The translations under genes were made by a program, and so were the position numbers. The notes under the pieces are model-generated. The model was given only the letters and a program-made list of their open reading frames with translations. It ran no database searches and was not told the DNA's origin. Positions 4,011-46,349 of a DNA stretch of 64,000 nt are shown in pieces; within the stretch, counting starts at the first letter, position 1, and each line of letters opens with the position of its first letter. Source of the stretch: a virus (taxonomy: Duplodnaviria; Caudoviricetes); IMG/VR virus record IMGVR_UViG_2974597873_000001, positions 1 to 64,000 of that record; one strand, given 5' to 3'.

Positions 4011-4256
4011 ATGATCAAGCGCATGTGGCGTGCCGCTGTCCGCAACATCGGTAAGACGCTCCACCACTCGTACGCGGGTAATAAGTTGATCGGGTGTGCC
4101 TACATGGTCCGTGTGGGCATGAGGCTGGACCGTGAGAGGGACCGGGAGGTTTTCCTCATCCTCACCCCGCATGAGGCTCGTACGCTCGCCGAACAGCTCA
4201 ACACGTACGCGGATAATGTGGACGCGGAGAACATGAGCGCCGGTTTCGTCGCCTGA
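4011..4256 (+). CDS. hypothetical protein
   Basis: 81 aa ORF, AAGGA RBS. Confidence 0.7.
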   Translation: MIKRMWRAAVRNIGKTLHHSYAGNKLIGCAYMVRVGMRLDRERDREVFLILTPHEARTLAEQLNTYADNVDAENMSAGFVA

Positions 4257-4321
4257 TTTCCTGAGTTTTGCATTATCCAGAAATGTATATTTCTGGGTAG
4301 TGTTGAATTCAAGAAATCGGG
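4252..4321 (+). other. UU/UG intergenic hairpin, copy 1 (putative RNase III-type processing stem)
   Basis: lower stem-TT-GCATTATCCAGAAAT gtat ATTTCTGGGTAGTGT-TG-lower stem. Confidence 0.7.
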
Positions 4322-4329
4322 AGGATTTA

Positions 4330-4479
4330 TTGAGTAAATCGGCTGCATTTGTTCTGGCCTTTTGTATGCTCATTTGTGGTTTTGCTGTGGGCACGCATTT
4401 GGGTTGGGAGTCTGGAGTACGTGACGGGAGAACTCTGGAACGTGAGAGGATGGGTATTACCCATGTGGAGGAGAAGTAA
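4330..4479 (+). CDS. small membrane protein (49 aa; not in the ORF track)
   Basis: GGAGGA RBS, TTG start, MSKSAAFVLAFCMLICGFAVG hydrophobic stretch. Confidence 0.6.
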   Translation: MSKSAAFVLAFCMLICGFAVGTHLGWESGVRDGRTLERERMGITHVEEK

Positions 4480-4789
4480 GGGACACGCGGAGCCGTGTGG
4501 TTCTGTACGGTGCCAGGATGCCCCCTGTAAGGCTGCATACGCGCGCACCGTGACCGCGCTGGACGTGGAGACACTGGGAGAGCAAGAGAAAGCGTACGTG
4601 GATGTCCGTATCTTCATGGGCGGTGCGTACACTGACGCTTCCTTGACGCGCTCCGATGTTGATTGCCTCATGGATCACAAGTGGCGCGCGAAATGCAAGA
4701 CATTTCGCATTCCCAAGGGTGACGGTACATGGGTGGTTATCGTGCCGTCCGCTATCGTCATGATCGAAGAACTCAGCGAAGATCACTAA
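4463..4789 (+). CDS. hypothetical protein
   Basis: ATG after GAGAGGA; overlaps the upstream ORF. Confidence 0.65.
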   Translation: MWRRSKGHAEPCGSVRCQDAPCKAAYARTVTALDVETLGEQEKAYVDVRIFMGGAYTDASLTRSDVDCLMDHKWRAKCKTFRIPKGDGTWVVIVPSAIVMIEELSEDH

Positions 4790-4801
4790 GGAGAAACAGT
4801 C

Positions 4802-5218
4802 ATGCCCGGATATAACGAATGTGGTATCTACGATCCTCGCTGCGTAAAGGGGACGTGCAATCATCCCACCAACCCGCGTAACAGCGGTATGCAGTGTCGC
4901 ACCATGCCCGCTCAGCGTCCGTGCCGCACGGGAGGATGTACGCGTCCCGAGTGCTCCCGTGCGCGTCTCAGCGCGTCGGCATTTCAGGCAGGCATGGTGA
5001 CTGACACAACGAGTGGTACAAACATCGGCTCTGTGCCCCCTCAGGTGGACGTCATCAAGTCCCGGGAGGAAGAGCCTACCTACAGCCTTACGGGGCTCAC
5101 ACGCGCCAATCTGCGCACCCTGGAACGGGCACTACGTGCGCGGGAGAGGGACGCAAAGGTGGGAGACGACTACGCGGAACTGCGTACGCTCCGGGACATG
5201 GTGTGTGACCTACTCTAA
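4802..5218 (+). CDS. hypothetical Cys-rich protein
   Basis: 138 aa, AAGGAG RBS. Confidence 0.7.
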   Translation: MPGYNECGIYDPRCVKGTCNHPTNPRNSGMQCRTMPAQRPCRTGGCTRPECSRARLSASAFQAGMVTDTTSGTNIGSVPPQVDVIKSREEEPTYSLTGLTRANLRTLERALRARERDAKVGDDYAELRTLRDMVCDLL

Positions 5219-5229
5219 GCAAGATCATT

Positions 5230-5272
5230 AGTGCCCCTGATCATGGGAAAACTCCAGGTCAGGGGCACTTTT
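5230..5272 (+). terminator. intrinsic terminator
   Basis: AGTGCCCCTGATC...GGTCAGGGGCACT followed by a T-run. Confidence 0.7.
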
Positions 5273-5282
5273 GCGTACGGGC

Positions 5283-5311
5283 TTGACATACCCCCGGGAC
5301 CTGCGTAGTGT
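5283..5311 (+). promoter_or_regulatory. promoter P1 of tandem pair
   Basis: TTGACA-17-TAGTGT. Confidence 0.75.
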
Positions 5312-5394
5312 CCTCCCTGTCAGCACAACCGAGCAACGCCGAAGCGAGACAGCCCTAGGGCCTAAAACGACGCAACGGACGCTCACACGGAGAG

Positions 5395-5423
5395 TTGACA
5401 CCAGCAACACAAGCTAGTAAGTT
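5395..5423 (+). promoter_or_regulatory. promoter P2 of tandem pair
   Basis: TTGACA-17-TAAGTT. Confidence 0.75.
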
Positions 5424-5469
5424 CGACCTCAGCAAGACAGCAACACCGCACAACAGCAAGACCTAGTAT

Positions 5470-5504: not shown

Positions 5505-5971
5505 TTAGCAGGCAGTCATAAAGTCACTGAATTCCAGAAAGTCAGGAAATCATGACGACTGCTGAAATCGCTGGTCTCGTGTGGGAAATCGACACACTCG
5601 CCAACGGTGCCAAGCTGTACACCAACACCACGGACAACATCACGGGTGTTCTGTACTGGGAAAATTCAACCGTGAACTACCACGTAGTCATGGTGGATGA
5701 CGAAACTTCCCCGCGTGAGTTTTACGACAACGCTCCTTACGCATCATGGAGCAAGTCACATCACGCGGACGCTTTGCGTAGCCTCAGTGAGGTTATGGGG
5801 GACGTCGAAGAAGAGTTGAAGGAAGACGCGTTGGATAGCTACTACTCTTCCGGCGCGGACTACGACGACGGAGATTACGGGTATGACTCTTACGACCCGT
5901 ATGACGTGGAATACGACCGTTACTAAAGTCTGAATCCATCGGAATTCAGTGACTCTATGATTGCCTGCTAA
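5505..5971 (+). repeat. 31-bp long-range inverted repeat (5505-5535 / 5941-5971) enclosing one ORF
   Basis: TTAGCAGGCAGTCATAAAGTCACTGAATTCC vs GGAATTCAGTGACTCTATGATTGCCTGCTAA: 29 Watson-Crick pairs, 1 G-U, 1 mismatch. Confidence 0.9.
5552..5926 (+). CDS. acidic protein with D/Y-rich tail
   Basis: 124 aa, AGGA RBS, ends DYDDGDYGYDSYDPYDVEYDRY. Confidence 0.8.
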   Translation: MTTAEIAGLVWEIDTLANGAKLYTNTTDNITGVLYWENSTVNYHVVMVDDETSPREFYDNAPYASWSKSHHADALRSLSEVMGDVEEELKEDALDSYYSSGADYDDGDYGYDSYDPYDVEYDRY

Positions 5972-6125
5972 TTCTCAATTTTGGTCAGCATTCCTCACCG
6001 AATATGCCCCACTCATAATGATTGGTTGTGCAGTAAGTGAGTTCGAATGGTTGACCCTGAATAGTACTAGCTAGGTGAATTACAACCCTATCTAGTGCTA
6101 TCCACGGTCACCCAAACGAAAGGAA

Positions 6126-6644
6126 ATGACCATGTCGGAATTCCACACCCTTTACAAGGGTTCTTTCGGTCACGCAGAGTCGGAGCGTGTGAGTAAGTAC
6201 GTGATGATTTACAAGCGTGCCGGAAAGGTTATTCCGGATGATGTGGCGCAGGCAATCGCGGGTTACTGGCATTCGCCTGCCTCCCCGAACTCCACCCGCC
6301 TCAGCACCATGGGTGAAATCGGTGTCGAGACTGACATTGCAGATTTCTGCAATGACAGGGAGTACAGCAATCTCGTACTCAACACGTCGATTTACGAAAT
6401 CGACGCACTCGGCGCCTACATCGAAAGCAAGAAAGCGCAGTTCCGCCACGAAATCGACTCGCTTGATGTTCAGGTGGGCGATGTTCTGGAAGACTGCCCG
6501 GAAGACGGAAAGGTGACGGCTGCCCGTACCATTTCCGTCGACTATTCCGGTACGCCCGGAGAGGGCCGTAAGGTCCGCTTTGAGAGCGAAGAGGACGACA
6601 TCCTTGCCGCTCCCATGATGCTTACGGTTTACCGGGGTTTCTAA
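6126..6644 (+). CDS. hypothetical protein
   Basis: 172 aa, GAAAGGA RBS. Confidence 0.75.
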   Translation: MTMSEFHTLYKGSFGHAESERVSKYVMIYKRAGKVIPDDVAQAIAGYWHSPASPNSTRLSTMGEIGVETDIADFCNDREYSNLVLNTSIYEIDALGAYIESKKAQFRHEIDSLDVQVGDVLEDCPEDGKVTAARTISVDYSGTPGEGRKVRFESEEDDILAAPMMLTVYRGF

Positions 6645-6700
6645 CGGGATTCGGTCCGGCATTGGGGTTGACATTCCAGTGCCGGACAGTGTCCAATTAG
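6641..6700 (+). other. UU/UG hairpin copy 2 (TTGACA loop)
   Basis: CTAACGGGA-TT-16 bp stem-TG-TCCAATTAG. Confidence 0.7.
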
Positions 6701-6723
6701 GGACAACCAAACGAAAGGACATT

Positions 6724-6945
6724 ATGCGTAATTACTCCGCAATGTGGGATGACTTTTTCGGGGCTGCACTGTGGGTCGGATTTCTCTTCCTGCTTGCCCT
6801 GATCCTTCCCGTGCCCGGGTGGCCCACTCTGTGGTGGCTCACCTATCCTTTCGGGGCGGTGCTGGTCGGTATTGTCTGCCGTAAGCTCGGATGGTACCGT
6901 AACCTCACCATCAAGGGATGGCGCATTCAGCGCGTCAACAAGTAA
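6724..6945 (+). CDS. small membrane protein
   Basis: two hydrophobic segments; GAAAGGA RBS. Confidence 0.7.
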   Translation: MRNYSAMWDDFFGAALWVGFLFLLALILPVPGWPTLWWLTYPFGAVLVGIVCRKLGWYRNLTIKGWRIQRVNK

Positions 6946-6957
6946 CAAGGGGACACC

Positions 6958-7131
6958 ATGGCCAGGGAATTCACGCAAAAGGAAATGGCCCAAATGCTCC
7001 TGCAACTGATCGATGGTTCCGGCGGCATCCTTGTGGATGACGCGGAATACATCGGGCAGGGAATCCACAAGCTGTACTTTGATAGGGACACCCTGCTGAG
7101 GGAAAGCGGACGGATGGAAGAAGAGTTCTAG
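6958..7131 (+). CDS. hypothetical protein (57 aa; not in the ORF track)
   Basis: AAGGGG RBS, MAREFTQKEMAQMLLQ...MEEEF. Confidence 0.6.
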   Translation: MAREFTQKEMAQMLLQLIDGSGGILVDDAEYIGQGIHKLYFDRDTLLRESGRMEEEF

Positions 7132-7182
7132 AGGGATTGCATTGTCCCTACTCACGTAGTAGGGTCAGTGTTGTCCACCTAG
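7128..7182 (+). other. UU/UG hairpin copy 3
   Basis: CTAGAGGGA-TT-14 bp stem-TG-TCCACCTAG. Confidence 0.7.
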
Positions 7183-7216
7183 CACAATGCTAGATGGCTA
7201 CACAGGAGGTAATATC

Positions 7217-7351
7217 ATGTCGGTCAACCTGAACAACGTCGCCGGTATCGTCTGCGGTCGTCGTAAGGATGACTCCCGCTGCGTGCTGTGGGACAACGAC
7301 ACCTTCGAGTGGTTCACGGCGGAAGAGTTCGCCAACAAGTTCGGTAACTGA
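7217..7351 (+). CDS. hypothetical protein (44 aa; not in the ORF track)
   Basis: AGGAGGT RBS, MSVNLNNVAGIVCG... Confidence 0.6.
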   Translation: MSVNLNNVAGIVCGRRKDDSRCVLWDNDTFEWFTAEEFANKFGN

Positions 7352-7373
7352 ACAACAAGAGAGGACACACCCC

Positions 7374-7514
7374 ATGAAGATGCACAAGGGATGGAAGATC
7401 ACGTTCCCGGACAAGAACGAGGAGTATTTCCTCGCTTCCCAGCTTCCCCGCGCGACGCGTACGGCTGCTGTGTCGAACGGGAGCAAGGTGGAGAGGGTCT
7501 TTATCCTCAAGTAG
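7374..7514 (+). CDS. hypothetical protein (46 aa)
   Basis: GAGGA RBS, MKMHKGWKITFPD... Confidence 0.55.
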   Translation: MKMHKGWKITFPDKNEEYFLASQLPRATRTAAVSNGSKVERVFILK

Positions 7515-7569
7515 CCTGATTGCCTGTTAGAGGGGCGTACAGCGTCCCTCTAGCGGGTTGTCCGACTAG
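7511..7569 (+). other. UU/UG hairpin copy 4
   Basis: GTAGCCTGA-TT-17 bp stem-TG-TCCGACTAG. Confidence 0.7.
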
Positions 7570-7797
7570 TTGAAAGGACGTGGGACAGTGCTTATCGGTC
7601 TGATCGCACTTGCCATCGGATACGTGTCCGTCGGTGTGGCCATGTACTCCGGGGATTACAACTACAGGCGACAGCAGTACGGTACCGTACGAGCCACCGT
7701 GAACAGTGTGTGTCTCGTGCTCGCATGGCCGTTCATGCTCCTGTACGCCGCTTACGCGCTGTTCAGGTTCATGACGTCCAAGCGTGGACTGTTCTAG
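7570..7797 (+). CDS. small membrane protein
   Basis: two TM segments, xxLAWP motif; true start may be slightly downstream. Confidence 0.6.
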   Translation: MKGRGTVLIGLIALAIGYVSVGVAMYSGDYNYRRQQYGTVRATVNSVCLVLAWPFMLLYAAYALFRFMTSKRGLF

Positions 7798-7848
7798 ACG
7801 TATTGCATCCATCTAAGACGTGTGCTTAGATGGGTGTTGTTCGCCTAG
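7794..7848 (+). other. UU/UG hairpin copy 5
   Basis: CTAGACGTA-TT-13 bp stem-TG-TTCGCCTAG. Confidence 0.7.
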
Positions 7849-7947
7849 ACGAAAGGAAGTGCGAACGATGCTCATAGGAGCAATCATCATCGGTACGTGT
7901 ACTCTCCTGTACGCGTGTAAGCGTTTCATTGACATGGGAGAGAAGTA

Positions 7948-8307
7948 ATGGCCACGTACAACGGCTGGACGGAACTGCGGGAGTACCGCGTGTGGATGGG
8001 TGAGGAAACGTATTCTGTCGTCACCGTGGAACGTCACCGCAACGGCTGGTACCGCGTCTACGAGGATGGGGGAAGCGACTGGAGCCGTTCCACGCGATCC
8101 GGTACTATCGCGTTCGATGAAGCGTCCAACCGGGCCGAATGGCTACAGGGGGAAGCTGCGGACACGTGCCCCTGTCAGAAGTGGGCGGAAGTTGAGCAAG
8201 TGGACTGTTACAGTCCCGAACTCAATCCGTACAACAGTGCGCACGGTATCCGCCTACAGGTGGTGGACATGATCGAAAACAGGGAACTGGAATTCTACGA
8301 ACTGTAG
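7948..8307 (+). CDS. hypothetical protein
   Basis: 119 aa, GGGAG RBS. Confidence 0.7.
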   Translation: MATYNGWTELREYRVWMGEETYSVVTVERHRNGWYRVYEDGGSDWSRSTRSGTIAFDEASNRAEWLQGEAADTCPCQKWAEVEQVDCYSPELNPYNSAHGIRLQVVDMIENRELEFYEL

Positions 8308-8361
8308 ACAATTTCAGTCATCCTAGGGACTTGACTCCCTAGGGTGGCTGTGATTGACTAC
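8304..8361 (+). other. UU/UG hairpin copy 6 with overlapping TTGACT-17-TTGACT
   Basis: GTAGACAAT-TT-15 bp stem (loop CTTGAC)-TG-ATTGACTAC. Confidence 0.7.
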
Positions 8362-8394
8362 AACAAGTGGTCAACCAAACAAGAGGAACACAGC

Positions 8395-8676
8395 ATGGAA
8401 ATCGGTAACGTCAACGAGCCTGCCGGAGAGTTCTACACTGTGCTCGCGCTGTTCGGTGAACTCCGGGCAGAAAGTCACGTGCTCACATTCGCCCCTGGTG
8501 ACACGGTGGCACTTCTCCGGTACGGTCCGGAAAACGAGCATGACGGGCCCCGTATCGTCTACGGCATCGTGGCTAAGACGTCATACAACCCCACCACGGG
8601 CATTCGGTACAGCGTGATGGACCGGGACGACAGCATGTATCCGAACGTCGGTCCCGATTATCTCGCGAAGATCTAG
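8395..8676 (+). CDS. hypothetical protein
   Basis: ATG after GAGGA. Confidence 0.7.
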   Translation: MEIGNVNEPAGEFYTVLALFGELRAESHVLTFAPGDTVALLRYGPENEHDGPRIVYGIVAKTSYNPTTGIRYSVMDRDDSMYPNVGPDYLAKI

Positions 8677-8729
8677 CCGGTTTTTCTCGCTCCGGGGCTT
8701 GACACTCCGGGGCGGGGATGATTGACTAG
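8673..8729 (+). other. UU/UG hairpin copy 7 with overlapping TTGACA-17-TTGACT
   Basis: CTAGCCGGT-TT-14 bp stem (loop CTTGACA)-TG-ATTGACTAG. Confidence 0.7.
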
Positions 8730-8775
8730 GTCTTGTCAGTCAGACAACGCAACACCAACCCAGAAGGAACACATC

Positions 8776-9081
8776 ATGGACAAGCTGACCATTGCTCGCC
8801 GCGTCGCCACCAACCCGAACATGCGCGCGCTCACGGCCAAGCGTGACCGGATGTTCAACCGGATGCGCGCGGACTATGGTAAGGACTTCATGGGCCTGGA
8901 CTACGCCAACCTGCCCGTGGATGAGGCGGGACGCGATGAGGCGTACGTCACGGAGATGAACACCGCTAAGGAGGGTGTCAACCGCTGGACGCGCCCGGAG
9001 CGTACGGAGTACATGCGCCTTGAGCGTCAGATCAAGACCTACCGGGACATGCTCACCGCGCACTACGCCAACAACGTCTGA
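8776..9081 (+). CDS. hypothetical protein
   Basis: ATG after GAAGGA; strong codon bias. Confidence 0.75.
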   Translation: MDKLTIARRVATNPNMRALTAKRDRMFNRMRADYGKDFMGLDYANLPVDEAGRDEAYVTEMNTAKEGVNRWTRPERTEYMRLERQIKTYRDMLTAHYANNV

Positions 9082-9126
9082 CACCCCCTTCAAGCCCCGT
9101 ACAACCCACACAGAGAAGAGACACAC

Positions 9127-9336
9127 ATGTTCAACGTCACCACTCCGGCCATGAACTCCCCCTTCACCCTGGTTCGCCCGGATCACTACGTCGTGACCAT
9201 GGGAGAGGGTCAGAAGGAGCGAGTCACGTTCGGTCGCTTCCTGCCCCTCTCCAAGCGTGCGGCGGGTCAGTACGCCCGTCAGTACGGCGGACGCGTGATC
9301 AAGCGGACCACGGCTCAGCGCGGTAACCTCATCTAG
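9127..9336 (+). CDS. hypothetical protein
   Basis: 69 aa ORF. Confidence 0.65.
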   Translation: MFNVTTPAMNSPFTLVRPDHYVVTMGEGQKERVTFGRFLPLSKRAAGQYARQYGGRVIKRTTAQRGNLI

Positions 9337-9388
9337 TCTCTTGTGTGGGGAGTCTGCCTAGTGTAGGCTCCCCGTACTGGACACTAGA
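9332..9388 (+). other. UU/UG hairpin copy 8
   Basis: TCTAGTCTC-TT-15 bp stem-TG-GACACTAGA. Confidence 0.7.
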
Positions 9389-9403
9389 AAGGCAGGGAAG
9401 GGC

Positions 9404-9595
9404 ATGACGTATTACGTCGAAATCCGGGACACTGCGGGTAAACTCGTGATGTTCCACAACCTTTCGGAGCAAGCGCGTACCTCTATCGTGGAAGCGATGA
9501 AGAGCGGTACGGTGGCTGTGTTCCGGGACGCACATGAGGGTCTGCACATGGTGAACATGGCACACGTCGTGCGCACTGTGGTGGATGTTGCCTAG
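9404..9595 (+). CDS. hypothetical protein
   Basis: 63 aa ORF with RBS. Confidence 0.65.
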   Translation: MTYYVEIRDTAGKLVMFHNLSEQARTSIVEAMKSGTVAVFRDAHEGLHMVNMAHVVRTVVDVA

Positions 9596-9650
9596 TTCGC
9601 TTTTCTCCTCTCCTAGGGCTTGACTCTAGGGGAGGGGGATGGTTGACTAG
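9592..9650 (+). other. UU/UG hairpin copy 9 with overlapping TTGACT-17-TTGACT
   Basis: CTAGTTCGC-TT-16 bp stem (loop CTTGA)-TG-GTTGACTAG. Confidence 0.7.
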
Positions 9651-9679
9651 TCCTAGTCACCAGGAAGGAAGTACAGAAA

Positions 9680-10294
9680 ATGCACGCTCCCGCTTACAAG
9701 AACTTCTCGGAGTTTCCGCAGACGATCGCGGGTTTCACCGCATGGCAGCAGCAGTGCGCGGAATGGGCGGAGTACCGTCAGTGGGTCGCTAAGCGTCGGT
9801 TCCACGCCCGTCCGGAGGAGAAGGGTATCCCCGTCGCCCACACGGGTAAGACGCTCCGCCGTAAGAGCGTCAACGGGCACGGTGTCTCCGCCGGATCGCG
9901 TGTGCTCTCCCACTGGTACCGTGACGAAACGTGGGAGAGCAAGGGACAGACCCGACGCGCGGTGCGACGGATCGAAACCCGTATGTGGGTCGGTGAGTGG
10001 ACGGAGGAACTGACGCACGACACGGACGGTTCCGACGCACGGGAGTGGTTCGCCACCCAGTCCACCACGGAGCGGCTGGACCGGAATTACTGGTACGAGG
10101 GTGAGACCCTGGCCGACCGTTTCGAGCGTATCGATTACGAGGGTAACGCCGACATGTTCCCGCCCGTGTACACGGTGGGCGTGACGGAACTGGATGAATC
10201 CTACTGGGATCAGGAGGATGACTACGGTTACTCTTACGGGTGTGACCGGTACTGCGAAATCTGCTACCCGGACATGCGCGGGTGGACGTACTAG
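9680..10294 (+). CDS. hypothetical protein with basic N-half and acidic/Cys C-tail
   Basis: 204 aa, AAGGA RBS. Confidence 0.75.
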   Translation: MHAPAYKNFSEFPQTIAGFTAWQQQCAEWAEYRQWVAKRRFHARPEEKGIPVAHTGKTLRRKSVNGHGVSAGSRVLSHWYRDETWESKGQTRRAVRRIETRMWVGEWTEELTHDTDGSDAREWFATQSTTERLDRNYWYEGETLADRFERIDYEGNADMFPPVYTVGVTELDESYWDQEDDYGYSYGCDRYCEICYPDMRGWTY

Positions 10295-10298
10295 TCAG

Positions 10299-10355
10299 TC
10301 TGTGAGCTTGCATCGTTGCCCTACTGTGTGTAGGGTGGCGGTGCTGGACCACAGA
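10299..10355 (+). other. UU/UG hairpin copy 10
   Basis: TCTGTGAGC-TT-15 bp stem-TG-GACCACAGA. Confidence 0.7.
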
Positions 10356-10364
10356 AAGGCGGAA

Positions 10365-10466
10365 ATGCTCGACATTATCGCGGTTCTAGCACTTGCAGGA
10401 TCGCTAGGTTTCAGCTACATTCTCCTTACGGCAAAAGCCAAACAGCGCAAGACAGACGAAAGGTAA
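10365..10466 (+). CDS. small membrane peptide (33 aa)
   Basis: AGGCGGA RBS, MLDIIAVLALAGSLGFSYILL. Confidence 0.5.
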   Translation: MLDIIAVLALAGSLGFSYILLTAKAKQRKTDER

Positions 10467-10470
10467 TCCA

Positions 10471-11202
10471 ATGGCCACGCGTAACCGTGTCGCTCAGTCC
10501 AACAAGATCACGGAGAGTGCCGTTCTGACCGTGATGGCGGGTTTCCCGGGTGACATGCTCACCCCCGTGGAAATCGCGGGAGAAATCGACGGAGCAACGG
10601 ACAAGGAGGTTTTCGACCTTCTGAACACCATGGAGGATGCCGGTAAGGTCACGGGGGAGGGTCGGGGACTCACCTCTAAGTGGTCCATCGGGGGAGCCCC
10701 TGAGAACCCCGTACAGGCGCCTGCCAAGCCCAAGAGGACCCGCCGCACTAAGGCGGAGATGGAAGCGGCCCGTAAGGAAGCTGCGGAGCGCACCGCGTAC
10801 AACGCGCGGGTGGCTGAAACTCAGGACATGGACATGAGCCAGAGTGCGGAAAGCGCGCTGGACGTCATGGCCAAGGGTGAGGCTCCGTCCGACACCGTGA
10901 CAACGCTCCCCAGTGCCGCATCCCTTCTGGGAGAGGGTCAGTCCCTCACCATTCCCACCCCGCCGGTTGCGGAGCCGGTCAAGCCCCGTACGGTCCGGCT
11001 CGAAATCCATGAGCCGAAGAACGGGGAGTGCCCCGGTAACGACATCCCGGAGTGCCCGGAATGGTGCCCCGTGAACGTGTGGGAACTTGCCCACGACGCG
11101 AACACGGAGAGCGCGCGGAACTACTGGGGTAAGCGGGTCGCGCAGTATCAGGCGGACGCACAGCCGAACTACGATGAGAACGAGGATAAGCCCCCGTTCT
11201 AG
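10471..11202 (+). CDS. protein with N-terminal winged-helix (Z-alpha-like) domain and PKRTRRTKAE motif
   Basis: LTPVEIAGEIDG...EVFDLLNTMEDAGKV...SKWSI pattern typical of wHTH. Confidence 0.55.
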   Translation: MATRNRVAQSNKITESAVLTVMAGFPGDMLTPVEIAGEIDGATDKEVFDLLNTMEDAGKVTGEGRGLTSKWSIGGAPENPVQAPAKPKRTRRTKAEMEAARKEAAERTAYNARVAETQDMDMSQSAESALDVMAKGEAPSDTVTTLPSAASLLGEGQSLTIPTPPVAEPVKPRTVRLEIHEPKNGECPGNDIPECPEWCPVNVWELAHDANTESARNYWGKRVAQYQADAQPNYDENEDKPPF

Positions 11203-11264
11203 TCTCTGATGTGATTTAGTCTCTCCCCGGGGAAACTCGGGGAAAGGCTATGTCCTATCAGGGC
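11202..11264 (+). other. UU/UG hairpin copy 11 (GAAA tetraloop)
   Basis: CTGATGTGA-TT-15 bp stem-TG-TCCTATCAG. Confidence 0.7.
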
Positions 11265-11289
11265 AACACCAAAACAGAAAGCGGAGACA

Positions 11290-11688
11290 ATGAATCTCAC
11301 CATCGGCGGAAAGATTCACCACCCCCCGTTCAACCGTCACGACGTCTTTCTCTGCGGAGACATTCGCGGGTACAAGGGTCACACTGGCACCCCCAAGCCC
11401 TACCCGGTTTCTCGGGAGGTGAATTGCCTCAACTGCCTTGACATCCTCAAGAGTCTTACCACCCGCCAAATGGGCGACAGTGGTATCACGTTCCGCGTGT
11501 CCGTCGCGGTGACGCGTGAGGGAGTCACCAACAAGCTTCCGTCGTTCTACTTCTCTTCCCTCTCCACCCCGGACATTCTGACTGTGGAGGATGCGGTTAC
11601 CGCAGCACGTACCATGCTCCACGCGGAAGAGCTGGAAATGATGTACGACGTGGTTTACGACGTTCGGGCATTCAAGCTCAACAAGTAG
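11290..11688 (+). CDS. hypothetical protein with putative Zn-binding N-terminus
   Basis: H..C..CxxC motif; GGAG RBS. Confidence 0.7.
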   Translation: MNLTIGGKIHHPPFNRHDVFLCGDIRGYKGHTGTPKPYPVSREVNCLNCLDILKSLTTRQMGDSGITFRVSVAVTREGVTNKLPSFYFSSLSTPDILTVEDAVTAARTMLHAEELEMMYDVVYDVRAFKLNK

Positions 11689-11766
11689 GCCATAACTGAA
11701 TTGCCCCTAGCTTGTCCTCACGGATGGGTTAGGGGCTTTTCGGGTGCCAGCATCTAATAGAAAGGC

Positions 11767-11955
11767 ATGGCTATGTCCTACTCGAAATGCTCCCGTTGTG
11801 GTCACCTCATGACGTCGGGACAAAGAATCGTGGCGGATCCTTGTTGCGGTGCGGACGACTGTGACGCCCCCAATGCGGTAAGCCACTACAAGTGTCTGCC
11901 GTACGGCCTACAGGCAATCGAAGATGCGGACGACGAGCGTTTCTACGTCCCGTAA
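11767..11955 (+). CDS. small zinc-finger-like protein
   Basis: CSRC...HYKC. Confidence 0.6.
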   Translation: MAMSYSKCSRCGHLMTSGQRIVADPCCGADDCDAPNAVSHYKCLPYGLQAIEDADDERFYVP

Positions 11956-11963
11956 GGAGAATC

Positions 11964-12128
11964 ATGCTCCACATCTACGCTTACGCCTCACACCCGCACT
12001 GGGGAGAGGGGCGGGTTATCTCTCACCCCGTGTGGTCGGTTCTCGTGGGCGGGGAAGTGGTTAACTTCCTCCCCGATAAGAAAGAGTTCGCCATTCTCGT
12101 CCCGATGGACGAACTGACACAGCACTAA
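11964..12128 (+). CDS. hypothetical protein (54 aa)
   Basis: AAGGAG RBS. Confidence 0.6.
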   Translation: MLHIYAYASHPHWGEGRVISHPVWSVLVGGEVVNFLPDKKEFAILVPMDELTQH

Positions 12129-12174
12129 AAGAAAGCCCCTACTGATTCCTTTGGGAGTTGGTAGGGGCTTTCTT
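12129..12174. terminator. bidirectional intrinsic terminator ending the early region
   Basis: AAGAAAGCCCCTACTGATTCC...GGAGTTGGTAGGGGCTTTCTT between convergent genes. Confidence 0.8.
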
Positions 12175-12178
12175 GCGT

Positions 12179-12337
12179 TTACATTCTTCTTCCATCCTCC
12201 GCACCCGCGTGCATGTGGATAGCTCTTAGTTGTCTTTCTGCCATTGCCTTAGTCTGTGGCTTTTTGCTGTACGTCTTTCCGGTCTCTTTATTGCGGACCT
12301 TATAACCTGACCCGCTTTTGCTTACTGAGTACGGCAT
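12179..12337 (-). CDS. small basic protein (52 aa; not in the ORF track)
   Basis: GGAG RBS; MPYSVSKSGSGYKVRNKETGKTYSKKPQTKAMAERQLRAIHMH. Confidence 0.7.
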   Translation of the reverse strand: MPYSVSKSGSGYKVRNKETGKTYSKKPQTKAMAERQLRAIHMHAGAEDGRRM

Positions 12338-13075: not shown

Positions 13076-13123
13076 TTACTGTGTTCCTTTCGAGAACAGA
13101 TATATAACAACAAACTAGAGTGT

Positions 13124-13179
13124 CTAGTCTGCCATAACCGCCCCCACCCTTTCGAGTGGGAGCGATTAAAGCGGCCTAG
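13124..13179 (-). other. UU/UG hairpin copy 12
   Basis: minus strand CTAGGCCGC-TT-15 bp stem (GAAA loop)-TG-GCAGACTAG. Confidence 0.7.
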
Positions 13180-13841
13180 CCGTGACGGTAGAACACGTGG
13201 TAATCGAGACCGAACAACACGTAATCGTCGTCCGTGCTCATGTTATCCGCCGTACCGGACCAGTCAATGTCAATCCAGTCCGGAAAGTCGGGGGAAATGG
13301 CCCCCATGTCTTCCGCCAGATTCTTAACGTACTCTTCCGGCGACTCCCACTGTCCCCGGTAGTTGTCCTGGAACCACTCGTCAGACAGGTGACCCGTGTC
13401 CCAGCCGTATTCCGACACAGCAGCGGCGTACGCGTCCGGAGTGTGGGAAGCGTATTCCCCATCCACCATGAGGCGGACGAAATTCGCCAGTTCCTCACCC
13501 GTCGGGCACTGGTTCGGGGTGTACAGTTCCGCGTCCGGGCCGAAATCGGTTTCCCACAGAAGGGAAACAATGCTGTGGTTGTTCCCCTTGGGGTTGAGGG
13601 AAGAAATGATCCTCTCCTCAAATTCGTCCGCGTCCGTGTCCTCATCCACGTGGATGGTGTAAAGACTGGGCATCTCAACAGAGACCAGCGTCGGCACCGT
13701 GACAGTCGGGAGGGTCTGACCCCTCATGTTGAGCCACGTACGCTTGATCCAGTTGACCGGAACGGAAATCTCCCGCTCTTCCTCCACCAGCTCGGAGTAG
13801 GTCAGACCCGTGTCAAGCGTAATGGTGAGCTGCATTTTCAT
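13176..13841 (-). CDS. ardA: ArdA-like antirestriction (DNA mimic) protein
   Basis: highly acidic; YRGQWESPEEYVKNLAEDMG...WIDIDWSGTADNM matches the ArdA C-terminal pattern. Confidence 0.8.
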   Translation of the reverse strand: MKMQLTITLDTGLTYSELVEEEREISVPVNWIKRTWLNMRGQTLPTVTVPTLVSVEMPSLYTIHVDEDTDADEFEERIISSLNPKGNNHSIVSLLWETDFGPDAELYTPNQCPTGEELANFVRLMVDGEYASHTPDAYAAAVSEYGWDTGHLSDEWFQDNYRGQWESPEEYVKNLAEDMGAISPDFPDWIDIDWSGTADNMSTDDDYVLFGLDYHVFYRHG

Positions 13842-13916
13842 GCCTTTCGGTTGCACTTCCTAACGGCTAGGAAGTTGATACCGAACCTAGTCGAAACTAG
13901 GCTCGATGTCAACCCA

Positions 13917-14237
13917 CTAGGCGAGCGTGCCCGTGTTGTACATGGTCAGAAACCCGATGAGCACAGAGTGAACGGTCTGTGCATCCGAGTTGTTGAACGT
14001 GGTCACGTGCTCACCATCGTGCCCCTTAACGGCCATGTCGTCAACCATCGAGTGCCAGTCGGCACGCTCGATGAGGTCCCGGATTTCCCGGGGCACTTCC
14101 GACTCAACACGGGACGTCGGGTCGTTCTTGAAAACCCGCGTCTCATACTCGTTACGGTAGTTCACCACCGTGGAAATGTGGTAGCGACCGTGGTAGGTGA
14201 CACGGACGGGCACGGGAGCGGTAGGAATCTCGAACAT
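13917..14237 (-). CDS. hypothetical protein
   Basis: 106 aa, GAGGGA RBS; ISTV...YETRVF motif. Confidence 0.7.
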   Translation of the reverse strand: MFEIPTAPVPVRVTYHGRYHISTVVNYRNEYETRVFKNDPTSRVESEVPREIRDLIERADWHSMVDDMAVKGHDGEHVTTFNNSDAQTVHSVLIGFLTMYNTGTLA

Positions 14238-14261
14238 GGTTCCCTCTCTTGCTTCCTGACT

Positions 14262-14313
14262 TAGGAAGCTAACACCACCCTAGTCCCTAGACTAGGATGA
14301 TGCAAGCTCACTA
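14262..14313 (-). other. hairpin family variant, copy 13 (TT/TA)
   Basis: minus strand TAGTGAGC-TT-14 bp stem-TA-GCTTCCTA. Confidence 0.55.
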
Positions 14314-14314
14314 C

Positions 14315-14917
14315 TCAGACGTACTGATGATACGTAGCGTGCTGCGCGTCATCGTACTCCATCCACGAAACAGCCTCATCCCCGGACTGTTCCTCAAACG
14401 CCCACTTGTCTCCCGTGTGCCACATGTCCTCACGCCCCTTGGGGGTCAGGTACAGCGTGCTGTCAAGGAGCGTACACCCTTCCGGAACCAGTTCCGACAC
14501 ACGCGGTGCGGTGTGCTTCCAGTTGCTGTAGGCGTACAGGTAGTCGGTTTCCCCATCCTCCCGTGCGATGATGGCACAGCCGTACCATACACCCGGGGTG
14601 ACGTTGTCCCACTCGTCAGACGACGTGTGAACGATCGGGTTACTCACGTTGTGTTCCTTTCCCTTGGGTGTCTCCACCTTAGCGGTTCCGGTGAGGGTGT
14701 CAACCCCAGTCCCCCGGTAGATGTATCCCGCGTAAATCGGACGGGAGTCACATACTCTGCCGTACGTGTCGTTGTGCGGCGGGAACTTGTTGTTAACCAT
14801 GGGGACGATACCACGGCTGCACATGGGGCAACGGTGCTGCCCTTCCTGCAACGGCTTAAGGGGTTCACGTGCGGGACCCTGGAAAGCCTTAGCGCGCTTG
14901 CGCTGCGTTGTTGTCAT
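14315..14917 (-). CDS. hypothetical protein, probably leaderless (an internal RBS suggests a possible second start)
   Basis: 200 aa; promoter -10 lies 7 nt before the ATG. Confidence 0.6.
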   Translation of the reverse strand: MTTTQRKRAKAFQGPAREPLKPLQEGQHRCPMCSRGIVPMVNNKFPPHNDTYGRVCDSRPIYAGYIYRGTGVDTLTGTAKVETPKGKEHNVSNPIVHTSSDEWDNVTPGVWYGCAIIAREDGETDYLYAYSNWKHTAPRVSELVPEGCTLLDSTLYLTPKGREDMWHTGDKWAFEEQSGDEAVSWMEYDDAQHATYHQYV

Positions 14918-33852: not shown

Positions 33853-34259
33853 CCCTCCGAGCTGCCCCGGAAGTCCGGGTTGGGGAGAAGAGCCTGAGGC
33901 TTGAACGTGACGCGGTAGTGGTAGGCAGACGCCTTGATCGGCGCACCCTGCTCCACATAGTACGAGACGTTGTCACTCAGACCCAGGAAGGACTTCTTGT
34001 ACTCGTCCTTACCAGTCTTGCAGATGATCTCAAGCTGGTTACCCTCGTCCTTGATGGAACAGGCGCCCTCGATCACCATCAGGTACTTGTCGGTGATGCC
34101 GTTGAAGGCGACGATTCGACGCTGAACCTCGAAGTTGTCAGCAGCCTTGGAGACGTTCTCAGAAGCCACAGTGGCGTCGTCGTCCGTGCAAGCCACGGCA
34201 CCCAGACCCAGCGCAACAACCATACCGAGAGTCGTGAAGGTCTTGTTGAGACGGTTCAT
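33849..34259 (-). CDS. phage lipoprotein
   Basis: lipobox AVAC; ADNFEVQRRIVAFNGITDKYL. Confidence 0.8.
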   Translation of the reverse strand: MNRLNKTFTTLGMVVALGLGAVACTDDDATVASENVSKAADNFEVQRRIVAFNGITDKYLMVIEGACSIKDEGNQLEIICKTGKDEYKKSFLGLSDNVSYYVEQGAPIKASAYHYRVTFKPQALLPNPDFRGSSEG

Positions 34260-34273
34260 TACATTTCCTCCTT

Positions 34274-34326
34274 TGTAGTGACCAGCACCGCCACTCTACT
34301 AGAGAGTGACGATACAAGCAACTACA
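34274..34326 (-). other. UU/UG hairpin copy 15
   Basis: minus strand TGTAGTTGC-TT-13 bp stem-TG-GTCACTACA. Confidence 0.7.
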
Positions 34327-34642
34327 TGTCGTAGAGCGCAGCCTCATTGATAGCGTTCAGAGCATCCTGACTCTCCGTACCCATCAGAATTTCCTTGCGG
34401 AAGATGTAGAGCCTGTACGCGGCCAGAACACCGATCAGCACCAGCAGAGTGAACAGTACACCCCCGACCCACAGAGCGCCAGTCAGTGAGAATACCGCCA
34501 CAATACCCATGATGATGGCGTTAGCCACGAAGAGAACACCGAAGCCCATCGCAGCCTGCTTGACGTGCACCTGGAACACTTCCTCACTGGCCTCACGAAT
34601 GAAGTCAAGCTCGTCGTCACCAGTCTTGGGGAACTCGAACAT
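34322..34642 (-). CDS. two-TM membrane protein
   Basis: two hydrophobic helices; AAGGAG RBS. Confidence 0.7.
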   Translation of the reverse strand: MFEFPKTGDDELDFIREASEEVFQVHVKQAAMGFGVLFVANAIIMGIVAVFSLTGALWVGGVLFTLLVLIGVLAAYRLYIFRKEILMGTESQDALNAINEAALYDM

Positions 34643-34886
34643 GTTTCTTTCTCCTTCTTTGTTGGTGGAGTAGTGCCCAGCAACGCCATCGTACTAGACG
34701 ATAACGAAGCTGACAACTACTTGCGGAAGGGACCAGGAACCTTACCGGCCACGTTCAGACCCACGTAGACAGCCAGAACGATGACCAGAGGCCAGAACAG
34801 TGCGGAGACTGCCATCAGCACCAGCTTGAGAACCACCGCCGCAGCGATGATAGCCAGCACGAAACCCGCGATCTTCAGCTTGCTCA

Positions 34887-37186: not shown

Positions 37187-37222
37187 GTTTCTCCTTCTAT
37201 AAATGACGTAGGGCCAGACACA

Positions 37223-37251
37223 AGAGTATCTGACCCTACTGACAACGTCAA
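37223..37251 (-). promoter_or_regulatory. recA promoter overlapped by a hairpin
   Basis: TTGACG-17-TACTCT. Confidence 0.6.
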
Positions 37252-42039: not shown

Positions 42040-42108
42040 ACTTACCTCCTCTTGATATGACAACACCCTCTGCACGAAATGTATCATGCAGAGGGTGTGT
42101 CTGTCTAA

Positions 42109-44026: not shown

Positions 44027-44250
44027 GTGGAAACCCTCGCATCCTCTACGCTGAGATCACGCATGATCTGCTCAGAGATCTCGTAGTCGTAATCCGAAAG
44101 GATCTTAGTCCACAGCTCCTCAGAAACCTCATCGTTACCACGCTTCTCAGCGTCTACGATCTGCTCCCAAAGATCTCCTAGCTTGTCGTCAAGCTCCAGC
44201 ACGACACTGCTCGGCGTCCAAACACTGAGTCTCAGAAATTCCTTAGCCAT
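44020..44250 (-). CDS. hypothetical protein
   Basis: 76 aa. Confidence 0.6.
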   Translation of the reverse strand: MAKEFLRLSVWTPSSVVLELDDKLGDLWEQIVDAEKRGNDEVSEELWTKILSDYDYEISEQIMRDLSVEDARVSTW

Positions 44251-44504
44251 TAAACCCTCTTCCCGTAGTACTTGTCAATGCTGTAGTGGTCCAGGAGATC
44301 AACTTCTCCTTCAAACATCATGCCATGAGTAGGGGGAGCAGCCTGTACGCACTTGACGACATAGTACTGCTCCCCCGTATCAGGGTCAAGCCAGCTCTGC
44401 ATGATCTCAATGATGCACGGTCGAACATGTTCGAACCGTTCGTACTCGTCGGAGAACTTGTCACCGATACTGAACACTTCGTCGGACCTTACAGAACTGT
44501 GCAT
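44250..44504 (-). CDS. hypothetical protein
   Basis: 84 aa, AAGGAG RBS. Confidence 0.6.
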   Translation of the reverse strand: MHSSVRSDEVFSIGDKFSDEYERFEHVRPCIIEIMQSWLDPDTGEQYYVVKCVQAAPPTHGMMFEGEVDLLDHYSIDKYYGKRV

Positions 44505-44514
44505 GACCTACTCC

Positions 44515-45093
44515 TTAATCGTGGCTGTATTCTTCTTGGAGTACACGCGTAGGAGTAATAACCACCTGCGTGTGATCACCAAACTTAGAACGAAGAGCAT
44601 CCTCAAATTCCACGGACTGGAGAGGAATATCCAAGTCCTTGACATTCGGGGTATCAGGGTGGTCGTAGGAATGGTCTACGAAGTCGTACAGACCCTCCTG
44701 TAGCTCTCGGTAGTACCTGACCGTACCATCATCTTCCTCGGACTTGCGATAGTCCGTCCAGCGCTCTCCCGCGTTCAGCTCGTACGCTTCCTTGGTGACG
44801 TTAACCTCATACTCCTCGTGGAAGTTAAAGTTCACCCAGTTCTCAGCAACCTCTGGATTGGAGGTGACAGAAACTTCGTGCACGCTGAACTCACAAACAT
44901 CTCCGTCCATGAAGTAAGGGGTGTACTGCTGCCATGTGATGGCCTTAACACCCTTCTCCCACACAGCATCCAGGTAAGGCTTCAGCTCAGAAATAGGACG
45001 AGGAGTGTAATTGCGCTCCCGCCACGAACTATAACGCTCACCCTCTACTGGAATCCCTAGGAACTCTCTCACGTCGTTGTTGGATGTAGTCAT
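44515..45093 (-). CDS. hypothetical protein (WxQYTPYFxDGDxCxF family)
   Basis: conserved-looking motif, ends EEYSHD. Confidence 0.7.
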   Translation of the reverse strand: MTTSNNDVREFLGIPVEGERYSSWRERNYTPRPISELKPYLDAVWEKGVKAITWQQYTPYFMDGDVCEFSVHEVSVTSNPEVAENWVNFNFHEEYEVNVTKEAYELNAGERWTDYRKSEEDDGTVRYYRELQEGLYDFVDHSYDHPDTPNVKDLDIPLQSVEFEDALRSKFGDHTQVVITPTRVLQEEYSHD

Positions 45094-45476
45094 TCGTTGC
45101 CTCCGAATACGCTTTCGTAATTACCGATTTCCTTACGCAGTCCACCAGACATCCAATCTGCATCTTCTACGTTAATGCGCTTAAGATAATCTGCGGGGCT
45201 CGGAAGCCACCCCAGATCCTCCATGATGTGCCGCTCAGCAATGAGCCTTACAGGCACTTCTACCGTCCCGTGGCCGTTCTTCTTGGCCACGTGGATAACC
45301 CTGCCAAAGATCTGCTGACACAGCCACACGCCTTCTGTGTGATGGTATACAGCACGATGACGAACGTCCCCGAAGATTTTCTTGGACGAGTCAATGAACT
45401 CCTCGATCTCAATGTAATCCTCAGGAACACCTCCCCACTTCTTGGCAGCGGACTTAGCGTGATGCCAAGAATTCAT
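45090..45476 (-). CDS. DUF6915-like protein
   Basis: HAKSAAKKWGG..EDY..I..FID.SK...RHRA..HH...AE.HI.EDL. Confidence 0.7.
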   Translation of the reverse strand: MNSWHHAKSAAKKWGGVPEDYIEIEEFIDSSKKIFGDVRHRAVYHHTEGVWLCQQIFGRVIHVAKKNGHGTVEVPVRLIAERHIMEDLGWLPSPADYLKRINVEDADWMSGGLRKEIGNYESVFGGNE

Positions 45477-45623
45477 TAGCCGAACCTCAGCTCTTCCTCA
45501 TCCGGTACGTAGACGGACATTTCTACAAGATTCAGAGATACAAAACGTGTCCCTGCTTCGTAGCAATCACTGTCCTCTACGGAATTGATTCCGTAGACCT
45601 TTCCGTCCAGAATTACCCAGCCT

Positions 45624-46022
45624 CTAAAGGAGTCCGTCAACGTCCACTCCTCTGTGAGCAAGCCAGATCTTGTACTGATCGATGGTGTTCACGATCACAC
45701 GATGGTTGACAGCGAAGCAGTTGAAAGGATTCAGTGCCCCGCAATCTCCGTGCTCGAACACCTCGTGTACCGCACGAGCAGGATCACGCATACTCATGGG
45801 CCAAGGGATCTCCGTAGTGGACTTGGACGACTCAGCCTCAGCCGCATACTCCTTGGCGCAGACCTCAATGAAGTGATCCCTTACGCGCTCAGAGAAGCTG
45901 AGATCACACATGACGTCATCCACGATGGTAACCAGCTCGAAAGCCAGATCCTCACCGCGAGTAACGATTTCGTCCACGAACTGATATGGATCGATCTCAG
46001 CCTCTACGGCAATGTTATACAT
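45624..46022 (-). CDS. hypothetical protein
   Basis: 132 aa. Confidence 0.6.
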   Translation of the reverse strand: MYNIAVEAEIDPYQFVDEIVTRGEDLAFELVTIVDDVMCDLSFSERVRDHFIEVCAKEYAAEAESSKSTTEIPWPMSMRDPARAVHEVFEHGDCGALNPFNCFAVNHRVIVNTIDQYKIWLAHRGVDVDGLL

Positions 46023-46284
46023 CTACCCATTCCTCCCTGGTTACTGGACGCTTAACTACCTTGGTCAGTGTCGTCGTGTCGTCACCGTAGCCATCGTTAA
46101 AGGAGTTGTAGTCCTGACTTTCCGTCGCACCATCCTCCCAGTAGATAGCCCAGTGTTCATCCTTGTAAATGACAATGGACTTGTAGCAGATACCCCAACG
46201 GGTACGCTCTTCCATGATGTCCTCTACGGAATCCCAGACTAGTTCTTGTGCTTCCTCCGAAGGTAGCTCGATTGTAATTGCCAT
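46015..46284 (-). CDS. hypothetical acidic protein
   Basis: RW...GATESQ motif. Confidence 0.65.
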   Translation of the reverse strand: MAITIELPSEEAQELVWDSVEDIMEERTRWGICYKSIVIYKDEHWAIYWEDGATESQDYNSFNDGYGDDTTTLTKVVKRPVTREEWVDV

Positions 46285-46296
46285 GCACCCTCATTT

Positions 46297-46349
46297 CTAG
46301 TAGTCCATAACCGAATCGCTACGAGAGCGACCCGATTAAAGCTCACTAG
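46297..46349 (-). other. UU/UG hairpin copy 16
   Basis: minus strand CTAGTGAGC-TT-13 bp stem-TG-GACTACTAG. Confidence 0.7.

Follow-up and report, generated by a model that had tools for sequence, protein, structure and literature searches.

A family of two-tier RNA hairpins between the small genes of a Streptomyces myophage

Genes, operons and hairpins of the window

The stretch of DNA considered here, called the window, comprises the 64,000 nucleotides at positions 1 to 64,000 of the IMG/VR virus record IMGVR_UViG_2974597873_000001, and it contains 16 copies of an imperfect two-tier hairpin that lie between small genes. The genome from which it comes is complete, measures 112,523 bp, carries direct terminal repeats and belongs to a cluster-BS Streptomyces myophage; the window covers its first 64 kb. 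In GenBank the phage is related only to four Streptomyces myophages, each of about 115 kb (Alone3, LuckySocke, GiJojo and pSt2308). Its DNA polymerase and ribonucleotide reductase are 80-90% identical to theirs as proteins, and the DNA of the early region only about 70%. A search of IMG/VR for further relatives by way of the DNA polymerase found none. Actinobacteriophage cluster BS includes GiJojo, and the paper on that cluster makes no mention of the hairpins (PMC11465772); the family is likewise not described in the literature searched or in Rfam, and no family of Rfam 15 reaches its gathering score in the window.

The left arm is built of operons. One extends from a consensus promoter at 663 to a U-tailed terminator at 5231-5275, and tandem promoters at 5283 and 5395 then start an operon of 6.5 kb. 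Ten of the hairpins are inside this second operon, where they part units of one or two small open reading frames (ORFs). The main signals here, as read from the sequence, are as follows.

5231 to 5275 (+): canonical U-tailed terminator, the end of the upstream operon
5283 to 5423 (+): tandem consensus promoters, TTGACA-17-TAGTGT and TTGACA-17-TAAGTT, driving the operon of the hairpins at 6640 to 11205
5505 to 5971 (+): long-range duplex of 31 bp, 5505-5535 with 5941-5971, bracketing the ORF at 5552-5926
11703 to 12180 (+): two canonical T-tailed terminators (11703-11736 and 12129-12174), closing the hairpin-bearing operon

The hairpins had been listed, at 16 places, in an earlier note made from the letters alone, and all 16 exist where it put them. 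A scan of the whole genome for perfect stems of at least 11 bp, with G-U allowed, gave 92 stems, 14 of the 16 hairpins among them. Flanks of 5'-TT and 3'-TG occur on 12 of the 92 stems, against about 0.36 expected, and all 12 are listed hairpins; the remaining four deviate by one mismatch or by a TA, the hairpins at 7139 and 11217 having one internal mismatch each. Since a scan tolerant of mismatches read through the junction and blurred the flanks, a covariance model (R1) was used instead, built from a MAFFT alignment (A1) of the 16 copies with a single consensus hairpin. Run on all 112.5 kb of the genome, R1 finds precisely the 16 hairpins, at 29-54 bits, and its next-best match with filters off has 15 bits. 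The copies, each found by R1, and two structures resembling them are listed below.

4258 to 4317 (+): AT-rich copy, 38.8 bits, with a 15-bp upper stem, between the TGA stop of the ORF at 4011-4256 and a small membrane ORF (4330-4479)
6640 to 6703 (+): class B (TTGACA apical loop), 42.6 bits, with a TAA stop in its foot
7127 to 7185 (+): class A, TTGCAT-17-TAGGGT, 45 bits
7510 to 7572 (+): copy with a 17-bp upper stem and without a promoter-like pair, 46.4 bits
7793 to 7851 (+): copy before the conserved gene family F14, 45.5 bits, also recognised by synteny
8303 to 8364 (+): class B (TTGACT loop)
8672 to 8732 (+): class B (TTGACA loop), the top-scoring copy, 54.4 bits; -33.1 kcal/mol, z = -4.8
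9331 to 9391 (+): class A, TTGTGT-17-TAGGCT
9591 to 9653 (+): class B, then a palindrome TGACTAG-TC-CTAGTCA
10298 to 10358 (+): class A, TTGCAT-17-TAGGGT, with a ribosome binding site (RBS) 6 nt after it; -37.0 kcal/mol, z = -6.4
11205 to 11264 (+): last copy before the operon terminators, without a promoter-like pair, 49.9 bits
13121 to 13180 (-): copy after an ArdA-like gene (13176-13856)
14258 to 14315 (-): class A, TTGCAT-17-TAGGGT, with a TT/TA junction
33793 to 33854 (-): weakest copy, 29.4 bits, with a 10-nt loop and TTGCTT-17-TACTGT, in a small membrane-protein operon
34271 to 34327 (-): copy with TTGCTT-17-TAGAGT, 49.1 bits
46294 to 46350 (-): copy in the replication-gene block, 50.2 bits, with syntenic copies in the relatives
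34670 to 34720 (-): looser relative with a 12-bp lower stem, TT/TT junction and 9-bp upper stem, scoring below the R1 threshold of E = 10
13864 to 13921 (-): non-family hairpin in the promoter spacer of TTGACA-17-TAGGTT, 15.2 bits

The looser variant at 34670 is thus present as first described, and it retains the U.G at +4 and carries TTGTCA-17-TACGAT. The hairpin at 13864 is not a true member of the family, because its junction is Watson-Crick.

Every copy lies between 4.2 and 46.4 kb, and 13 of the 16 lie between 4.2 and 14.3 kb, so the description of the family as genome-wide was too strong. Extending the covariance-model scan from this genome to its relatives, as the earlier note had proposed, reveals the family in all four, at syntenic places (12 copies in Alone3, 11 in LuckySocke, seven in GiJojo and 11 in pSt2308). 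R1 has no match in a cluster-BE Streptomyces phage, a mycobacteriophage, a Gordonia phage or T7. A degenerate pattern of the junction picked out about 116 viral loci, mostly random, and 80 of these were scanned by R1 with one weak match; these pre-selected viral contigs, 690 kb in all, provided a negative control. None was found in 41 genomes of the Streptomycetaceae (one complete and 40 others), in each of which about 130 of about 1,500 first-look candidates were scored.

Geometry, conserved core and covariation

Each copy is a helix of 25-29 bp, some two turns or more, in two tiers, with a stability of -25 to -38 kcal/mol. The geometry is as the earlier note had it: a lower stem some 10 bp long that generally has CTAG at its feet, then a TT/TG junction (TA once) and an upper stem of 13-17 bp. 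The junction, 10 bp from the base, is a U.G pair beside a U opposite a U. On the transcribed strand, the consensus of the 5' side is y-CUAG, five variable bases (usually ending in c) and UU, above which come three variable pairs, U and C, the rest of the upper stem and a loop of 3-10 nt; the return strand reads G, G, three pairs, UG, five to six bases and CUAG-a. Among 43 distinct copies from four phages, a U.G four pairs above the junction (model positions 16:78) is present in 42, the U.G at 11:83 in 38 and a C-G at 17:77 in 35, and U stands opposite U in about 43 of 44 copies. The near-invariant upper U.G had been omitted from the original description, as had the promoter-like hexamers and TTGAC loops discussed below. 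Nor are the primary sequences unrelated, as had been supposed, since CTAG, cTT, the T at +4, GG and TG are conserved and sequence subfamilies are present.

In 12 of the 16 window copies the upstream stop codon (TAG in 11, TAA in one) falls within the first 6 nt of the hairpin, and in the other four it is 1-6 nt before it; the next start codon, preceded by an RBS, is 6-43 nt past the hairpin. No U-tract follows. The 8 nt after the upper stem start with TG or TA and belong to the lower stem, where they are paired, and A-rich or RBS sequence comes only after the complete hairpin. The hairpin-then-U-tract arrangement of a canonical intrinsic terminator is therefore not found in the family copies, and in this, as in the nearby RBS, the first description was accurate; U-tailed terminators occur elsewhere in the genome.

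Two further features of these sequences can be recorded. The tetranucleotide CTAG is rarer than expected across the genome (233 observed, against about 436 from composition), and 51 CTAG lie at 4-16 kb, mostly in hairpin feet and stems. A mini-ORF can be read in the 3' lower strand (NTG, two codons and an in-frame TAG; model positions 81-92), and it was dismissed as a coincidence that follows from the fixed geometry: its first base is C in six of 44 copies, so that true start codons show no enrichment, and no Shine-Dalgarno sequence stands at a usable distance.

Selection on the structure is evident from the alignments. In the structure-blind alignment A1, 90.2% of cells are paired, compared with 56.7% after shuffling and 37-54% in slid controls, and the covariation score is 0.84 as against 0.23 in shuffles. 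Alignment of 44 copies from four phages gives 93.9% paired, with double changes at 19 of the 21 pairs; a lack of covariation across homologues had been named in advance as a way for the proposal to fail, and the covariation is strong. The transcribed strand is the more stable in all 44 copies (mean -33.7 kcal/mol, compared with -21.3; mean difference 12), so that the structure is one formed at the RNA level. There are 173 wobble cells and six A.C cells in these copies, and the orientation of the hairpins tracks the genes on both arms of the genome, so the earlier statements that orientation follows transcription and that the non-Watson-Crick pairs are mostly G-U on the coding strand agree with both the covariation and the wobble asymmetry.

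Orthologous copies swap whole stems and retain the core. The hairpin at 13121 has an orthologue in all four relatives, in which the upper stem is fully replaced yet paired, and this copy after the ArdA-like gene also shows a compensated change from CUAG/CUAG to UUAG/CUAA. The hairpin at 8303 has an orthologue after gene family F14 in all relatives, with a covarying stem, and that at 7793 is the sole megablast match to the relatives within 6000-12000 (88-91% identity). The hairpins are thus a family structured at the RNA level, and that they constitute a new RNA structure family is well supported.

Operon context, promoter-like pairs and cassette exchange

The promoters at 5283 and 5395 and the terminators at 11703 and 12129 enclose ten hairpins, which bears out the location within polycistronic transcripts that the earlier note had claimed. 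The hairpins at 7510, 7793 and 11205 have no promoter-like pair and the next start codon is only 15-25 nt away, so that the downstream genes, including F14, must be read through the hairpins; F14 is conserved in all five phages. The hairpins are therefore intra-operon elements and not the terminators of operon ends.

The same operon carries a second kind of double-stranded structure, the long-range duplex that encloses its acidic first ORF. The duplex is kept in four relatives at 31-36 bp, with compensatory changes and a conserved A.C mismatch (4979-5011 with 5419-5451 at L001, 5430-5465 with 5857-5892 at L002 and 8518-8549 with 8950-8981 at L003). In form it is like the stalk from which rRNA is processed, and a role as promoter or as terminator is impossible for it. 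It is a candidate for a second double-stranded RNA processing element in the hairpin operon, and it lends added plausibility to the idea that an RNase specific for double strands acts on this transcript. A likeness by eye between the core of the duplex (AGUCGC / GCGGCU..AUGRUUG) and the hairpin junction was no better than in shuffled controls, and was rejected. Upstream of the next gene there is also a second long imperfect hairpin (window about 6040-6105, with arms of 24-32 nt), with counterparts at L001 5508-5583, L002 5955-6012 and L003 9049-9113; in the relatives it has CAUAAAC/GUCUAUG with an A.C mismatch, like the long-range duplex.

Some copies of the family contain what appear to be promoter elements. 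TAnnnT hexamers peak 23 nt after the junction T (10 copies, with three more at 24 nt), a position 17-18 nt after TTGCAT. The pair TTGNNN-16..18-TANNNT, with its -35 at the junction and its -10 at the start of the 3' arm, is found on the sense strand of 16 of the 44 copies, on the antisense strand of one, and in 2.0 +/- 1.2 copies in shuffles. Four orthologues that follow gene family F17 all open the 3' arm with TAnnnT, though their stems differ; an apical insertion in the GiJojo copy at 6350 gives a TTGACA exactly 17 nt from a retained TAGGTT; and in the short-stem copies at 33793 and 34271 the TTG is four bases further upstream, which preserves the 17-nt spacing. About a third of the copies thus carry an HrdB-type promoter-like pair within the stem, with predicted promoter activity.

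The class B copies, a further 12 of the 44, have TTGAC(A/T) in the apical loop, and their orthologues keep the loop while the stems covary. As a -35 box this TTGAC was tried and discarded: the hexamer 17-18 nt downstream is TTGACT, TTGGCT or TTAGCT and lacks the essential A at -11, so class B copies are not standard promoters. After the hairpin come a palindrome centred on CTAG (such as TGACTAG-NN-CTAGTCA) and leaders of 30-45 nt rich in C and A, at these places.

8364 to 8395, 8732 to 8776 and 9641 to 9662: palindrome and leader regions after TTGAC-loop hairpins
L001 7100 to 7140 and 7650 to 7690: the same in a relative

This arrangement may serve as an operator, or else supply the downstream mRNA with an alternative 5' hairpin. 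About 17 of the 44 copies have neither a promoter-like pair nor a TTGAC loop. Hairpins outside the family also lie in or over promoter-like pairs directly after stop codons, at 13864-13921 (-), 37208-37251 (-) and 42063-42098 (pairs such as TTGACA-17-TAGGTT and TTGACG-17-TACTCT), so that the terminator-plus-promoter layout is a wider habit of the phage.

Comparison with the relatives reveals how the hairpins relate to gene turnover. A gene-family map of four early regions shows a conserved backbone, with unrelated ORFs inserted or swapped between conserved hairpins. Alone3 and LuckySocke, 98% identical in the early region, differ by a single 218-bp indel consisting of a hairpin and a 45-aa ORF, and the crossover is within a 10-nt repeat, TACTGAGTAG, formed by the end of an ORF and a hairpin foot. 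GiJojo and pSt2308 differ by two more units of hairpin plus ORF, and homology restarts exactly at the hairpin start. There are also mosaic hairpins, in which one lower stem is paired with different upper stems, and similar hairpins flank gene family F19 on different sides in different phages. At the level of sequence, the hairpins thus behave as cassette boundaries, where a hairpin and its ORF come, go or are exchanged as one unit. The alternative offered in the earlier note, that of cassette boundaries resembling the PeSLs of T4-type phages (modules combining a promoter with a stem-loop), has direct support from the indels and from breakpoints at the hairpin foot.

Other features of the window are unrelated to the family. 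A perfect 16-bp stem with an 11-nt loop lies between early genes at 3692-3734 (+), and at 59855-59894 there is an AT-rich palindrome, able to fold on either strand, that may terminate transcription in both directions. The Rpf-LysM protein of the phage (22258-22824, minus strand) has homologues 45-60% identical across many actinomycete genera, including Actinoplanes, Micromonospora and Amycolatopsis.

Possible roles: RNA processing, portable joints and passive punctuation

In phage T7, the early mRNA is cut into separate messages by RNase III. The sites of this cleavage (R0.3, R0.5, R1, R1.1 and R1.3), folded for comparison, are like the present hairpins in being intercistronic, about 50-60 nt long and placed in an early operon between tandem host-type promoters and a closing terminator. 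They too are two-tier helices with a conserved non-Watson-Crick interruption, the copies in one genome are related and some adjoin minor promoters. The two sets differ in that there is no similarity of sequence or model between them, the covariance model R1 finding nothing in T7, and in that the T7 sites have a multi-nucleotide internal loop and an upper stem of 9-10 bp, as opposed to a single U.U beside a U.G and 13-17 bp. A 9-mer in common with R1.1 (AUGAUUGAC) is within chance by estimate and was dropped. T7 sites, unlike the present hairpins, are not known as cassette joints. The host here is an actinomycete, and the family is known from sequence, from which we infer, rather than demonstrate, cleavage, the identity of the nuclease and any stabilisation.

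With that reserve, we tentatively favour the idea that the hairpins are T7-like RNase III sites for processing and stabilisation, which would also serve as cassette joints of the PeSL kind. The hairpins would be cis-acting RNA structures, transcribed by the host RNA polymerase within polycistronic early and accessory mRNAs, each spanning the distance from the stop codon of one small gene to just before the next RBS. The non-Watson-Crick core, with its U.G and U.U about 10 bp from the base and its U.G and C-G four to five pairs higher, would be where a double-strand-specific endoribonuclease, most probably the RNase III of the host, recognises and cuts the RNA. Cutting at the core would split the long transcript into short mRNAs, leave the upstream mRNA with a protective 3' hairpin and uncouple the translation of neighbouring cistrons. 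In sequence, the elements are also the joints for the gain, loss and swapping of hairpin-plus-ORF cassettes, as T4-type PeSLs are. With about 10 bp below the junction and at least 13 bp above it, the size fits RNase III; an RNase III domain is absent from the phage and present in a Streptomycetaceae genome.

Several observations weigh against this idea. The U.G/U.U/U.G core is no known determinant of RNase III, and R1 found no match among the candidates scored in the 41 Streptomycetaceae genomes, so that host substrates do not share the consensus. The core, written as UU-NNN-UC / GG-NNN-UG, is also not in the host 16S processing stalk, a result that is uninformative. A pure processing role leaves the promoter-like pairs and the conserved TTGAC loops unexplained. 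Finally, Term-seq in Streptomyces shows highly structured 3' ends without a U-tract (PMC8269248), so that termination or trimming without specific cleavage is possible. The dedicated RNA-processing code of the earlier note is upheld insofar as the elements act at the RNA level, inside operons and free of a U-tract, and is qualified by the sense promoter-like pairs in 16 of 44 copies, so that the elements are probably composite and not purely a processing code.

The strongest competing explanation, possible though rather unlikely, dispenses with specific cleavage and makes each element an attenuator plus promoter. The hairpin would partly stop or pause transcription, as a tail-less, I-shaped terminator, and the promoter in the stem would restart it, so that every ORFan cassette would be a portable, self-contained transcription unit. 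The definition is the same as that of the PeSLs, namely a stop codon, a promoter with a stem-loop between or over its boxes, G-T pairs and then a Shine-Dalgarno sequence (PMC2839356). The strand bias of the promoter-like pairs and their sharp 17-nt spacing peak favour such modules, as do the TAnnnT preserved in the F17 orthologues, the TTGACA gained by the GiJojo copy, the good promoters whose spacers hold the non-family hairpins at 13864 and 34670, the indels of hairpin plus ORF, and the U-lacking structured 3' ends of Streptomyces (PMC8269248). However, about 60% of the copies lack a properly spaced TAnnnT, with no room for a promoter before their downstream genes, the -35-like hexamer (TTGCAT) is weak, and the most conserved positions (the T at +4, GG and TG) fall outside the promoter positions. 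There is no U-tract, which actinobacterial RNA polymerase required in vitro (PMC3993855), the real operon ends of the phage use U-tailed terminators, and ten terminators in series, even if only moderately efficient, would silence the distal genes.

The hairpins and the T4-type PeSLs (PMC2839356, PMC4122927) share a module from upstream stop codon to downstream Shine-Dalgarno sequence, a stem-loop with G-T pairs that separates or overlaps the -35 and -10 boxes (promoter-like ones in the present family), and a position flanking ORFans at which insertions, deletions and replacements separate close relatives. In PeSLs, though, the conserved part is a strong sigma-70 promoter and the position of the stem-loop varies, whereas in the present family the hairpin geometry and junction are conserved and a promoter-like pair is confined to roughly a third of the copies. 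Terminator activity and mini-circles are further features by which PeSLs differ from the family as it is known from sequence. The I-shaped terminators and U-lacking 3' ends of actinobacteria (PMC8269248; contested in PMC3993855) are similarly stable, GC-containing hairpins after stop codons without a U-tract; the family differs from them in its fixed two-tier geometry, its conserved core, its serial placement inside operons and the U-tailed terminators with which the same genome ends its operons. Processing by RNase III and a PeSL-like function are compatible, and we suspect that both are partly true. The family would function like T7 R-sites and T4 PeSLs, and it is homologous to neither.

The near-invariant, sequence-specific core exceeds what RNase III usually needs, and this could indicate a site for a dedicated phage-encoded RNA-binding protein or nuclease, for example in the timed shut-off or stabilisation of early mRNA, of which T4 RegB and RegA are examples. 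The restriction of the family to one phage cluster, the want of a recognisable family for most early proteins and the RNA-handling genes of the phages (Ro60, RNA ligases, PNK) are in keeping with such a protein, but no candidate for an RNA-binding protein or nuclease emerged when ten early proteins were scanned against Pfam and PHROG, three hairpin copies are in non-early blocks and the long-range duplex is explained no better than by RNase III; we regard this as unlikely. It is quite improbable that the hairpins punctuate the transcript passively, as REP elements do, acting as barriers to exonucleases in both directions (3'-5' and 5'-3') and as translational insulators with no specific endonuclease. 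Their high stability and their placement inside operons, from stop codon to just before the RBS, would suit that role, but it has no need of an invariant U.U and two fixed U.G pairs, Watson-Crick pairs being more stable. A structure-specific factor of phage or host that takes the core as its handle, both processing early mRNA and targeting the exchange of ORFan cassettes, seems very unlikely.

A further candidate role for the hairpins is that of recombination sites in single-stranded DNA, by which a site-specific enzyme would move the cassettes. REP/BIME elements and integron attC sites are also repeated imperfect palindromes between genes of the same orientation, conserved in structure and variable in sequence, and the lower stem, mismatch and upper stem of the family, its fixed orientation to the cassettes, the indels at hairpin feet and the mosaic hairpins could all be read in attC or REP/RAYT terms. 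Yet the phage has no cognate RAYT or integrase: the tyrosine recombinase (PF00589) and Y1/HUH transposase (PF01797) domains are absent from the six-frame translation of its whole genome, and the annotation of Alone3 lists neither enzyme. The family was not found in the host-family genomes searched and has only seven to 16 copies per genome in one phage cluster. The sole precisely mapped crossover, in a 10-nt microhomology, fits ordinary recombination, and orientation tracks transcription on both genome arms, so that this explanation is scarcely credible.

An actinobacteriophage would here have its first defined family of RNA punctuation elements between cistrons, with a clean covariance model and a compact invariant core, and the five sequenced relatives offer natural experiments in cassette gain and loss. 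To our knowledge, the recognition rules of the Streptomyces RNase III (AbsB) are poorly known. If the RNase III interpretation is correct, the family would provide the first consensus substrate for this enzyme, and T7-style mRNA processing would have evolved independently in a distant phage-host pair. If the elements are composite, the concept of the PeSL, a portable regulatory joint behind the turnover of ORFans, would reach beyond the T4-like phages. Were a dedicated structure-specific factor responsible, a lytic actinophage would possess an integron-like cassette system that works on folded single strands without a tyrosine recombinase. In practical terms, these 60-nt elements are candidate insulators for engineered multi-gene operons in Streptomyces.

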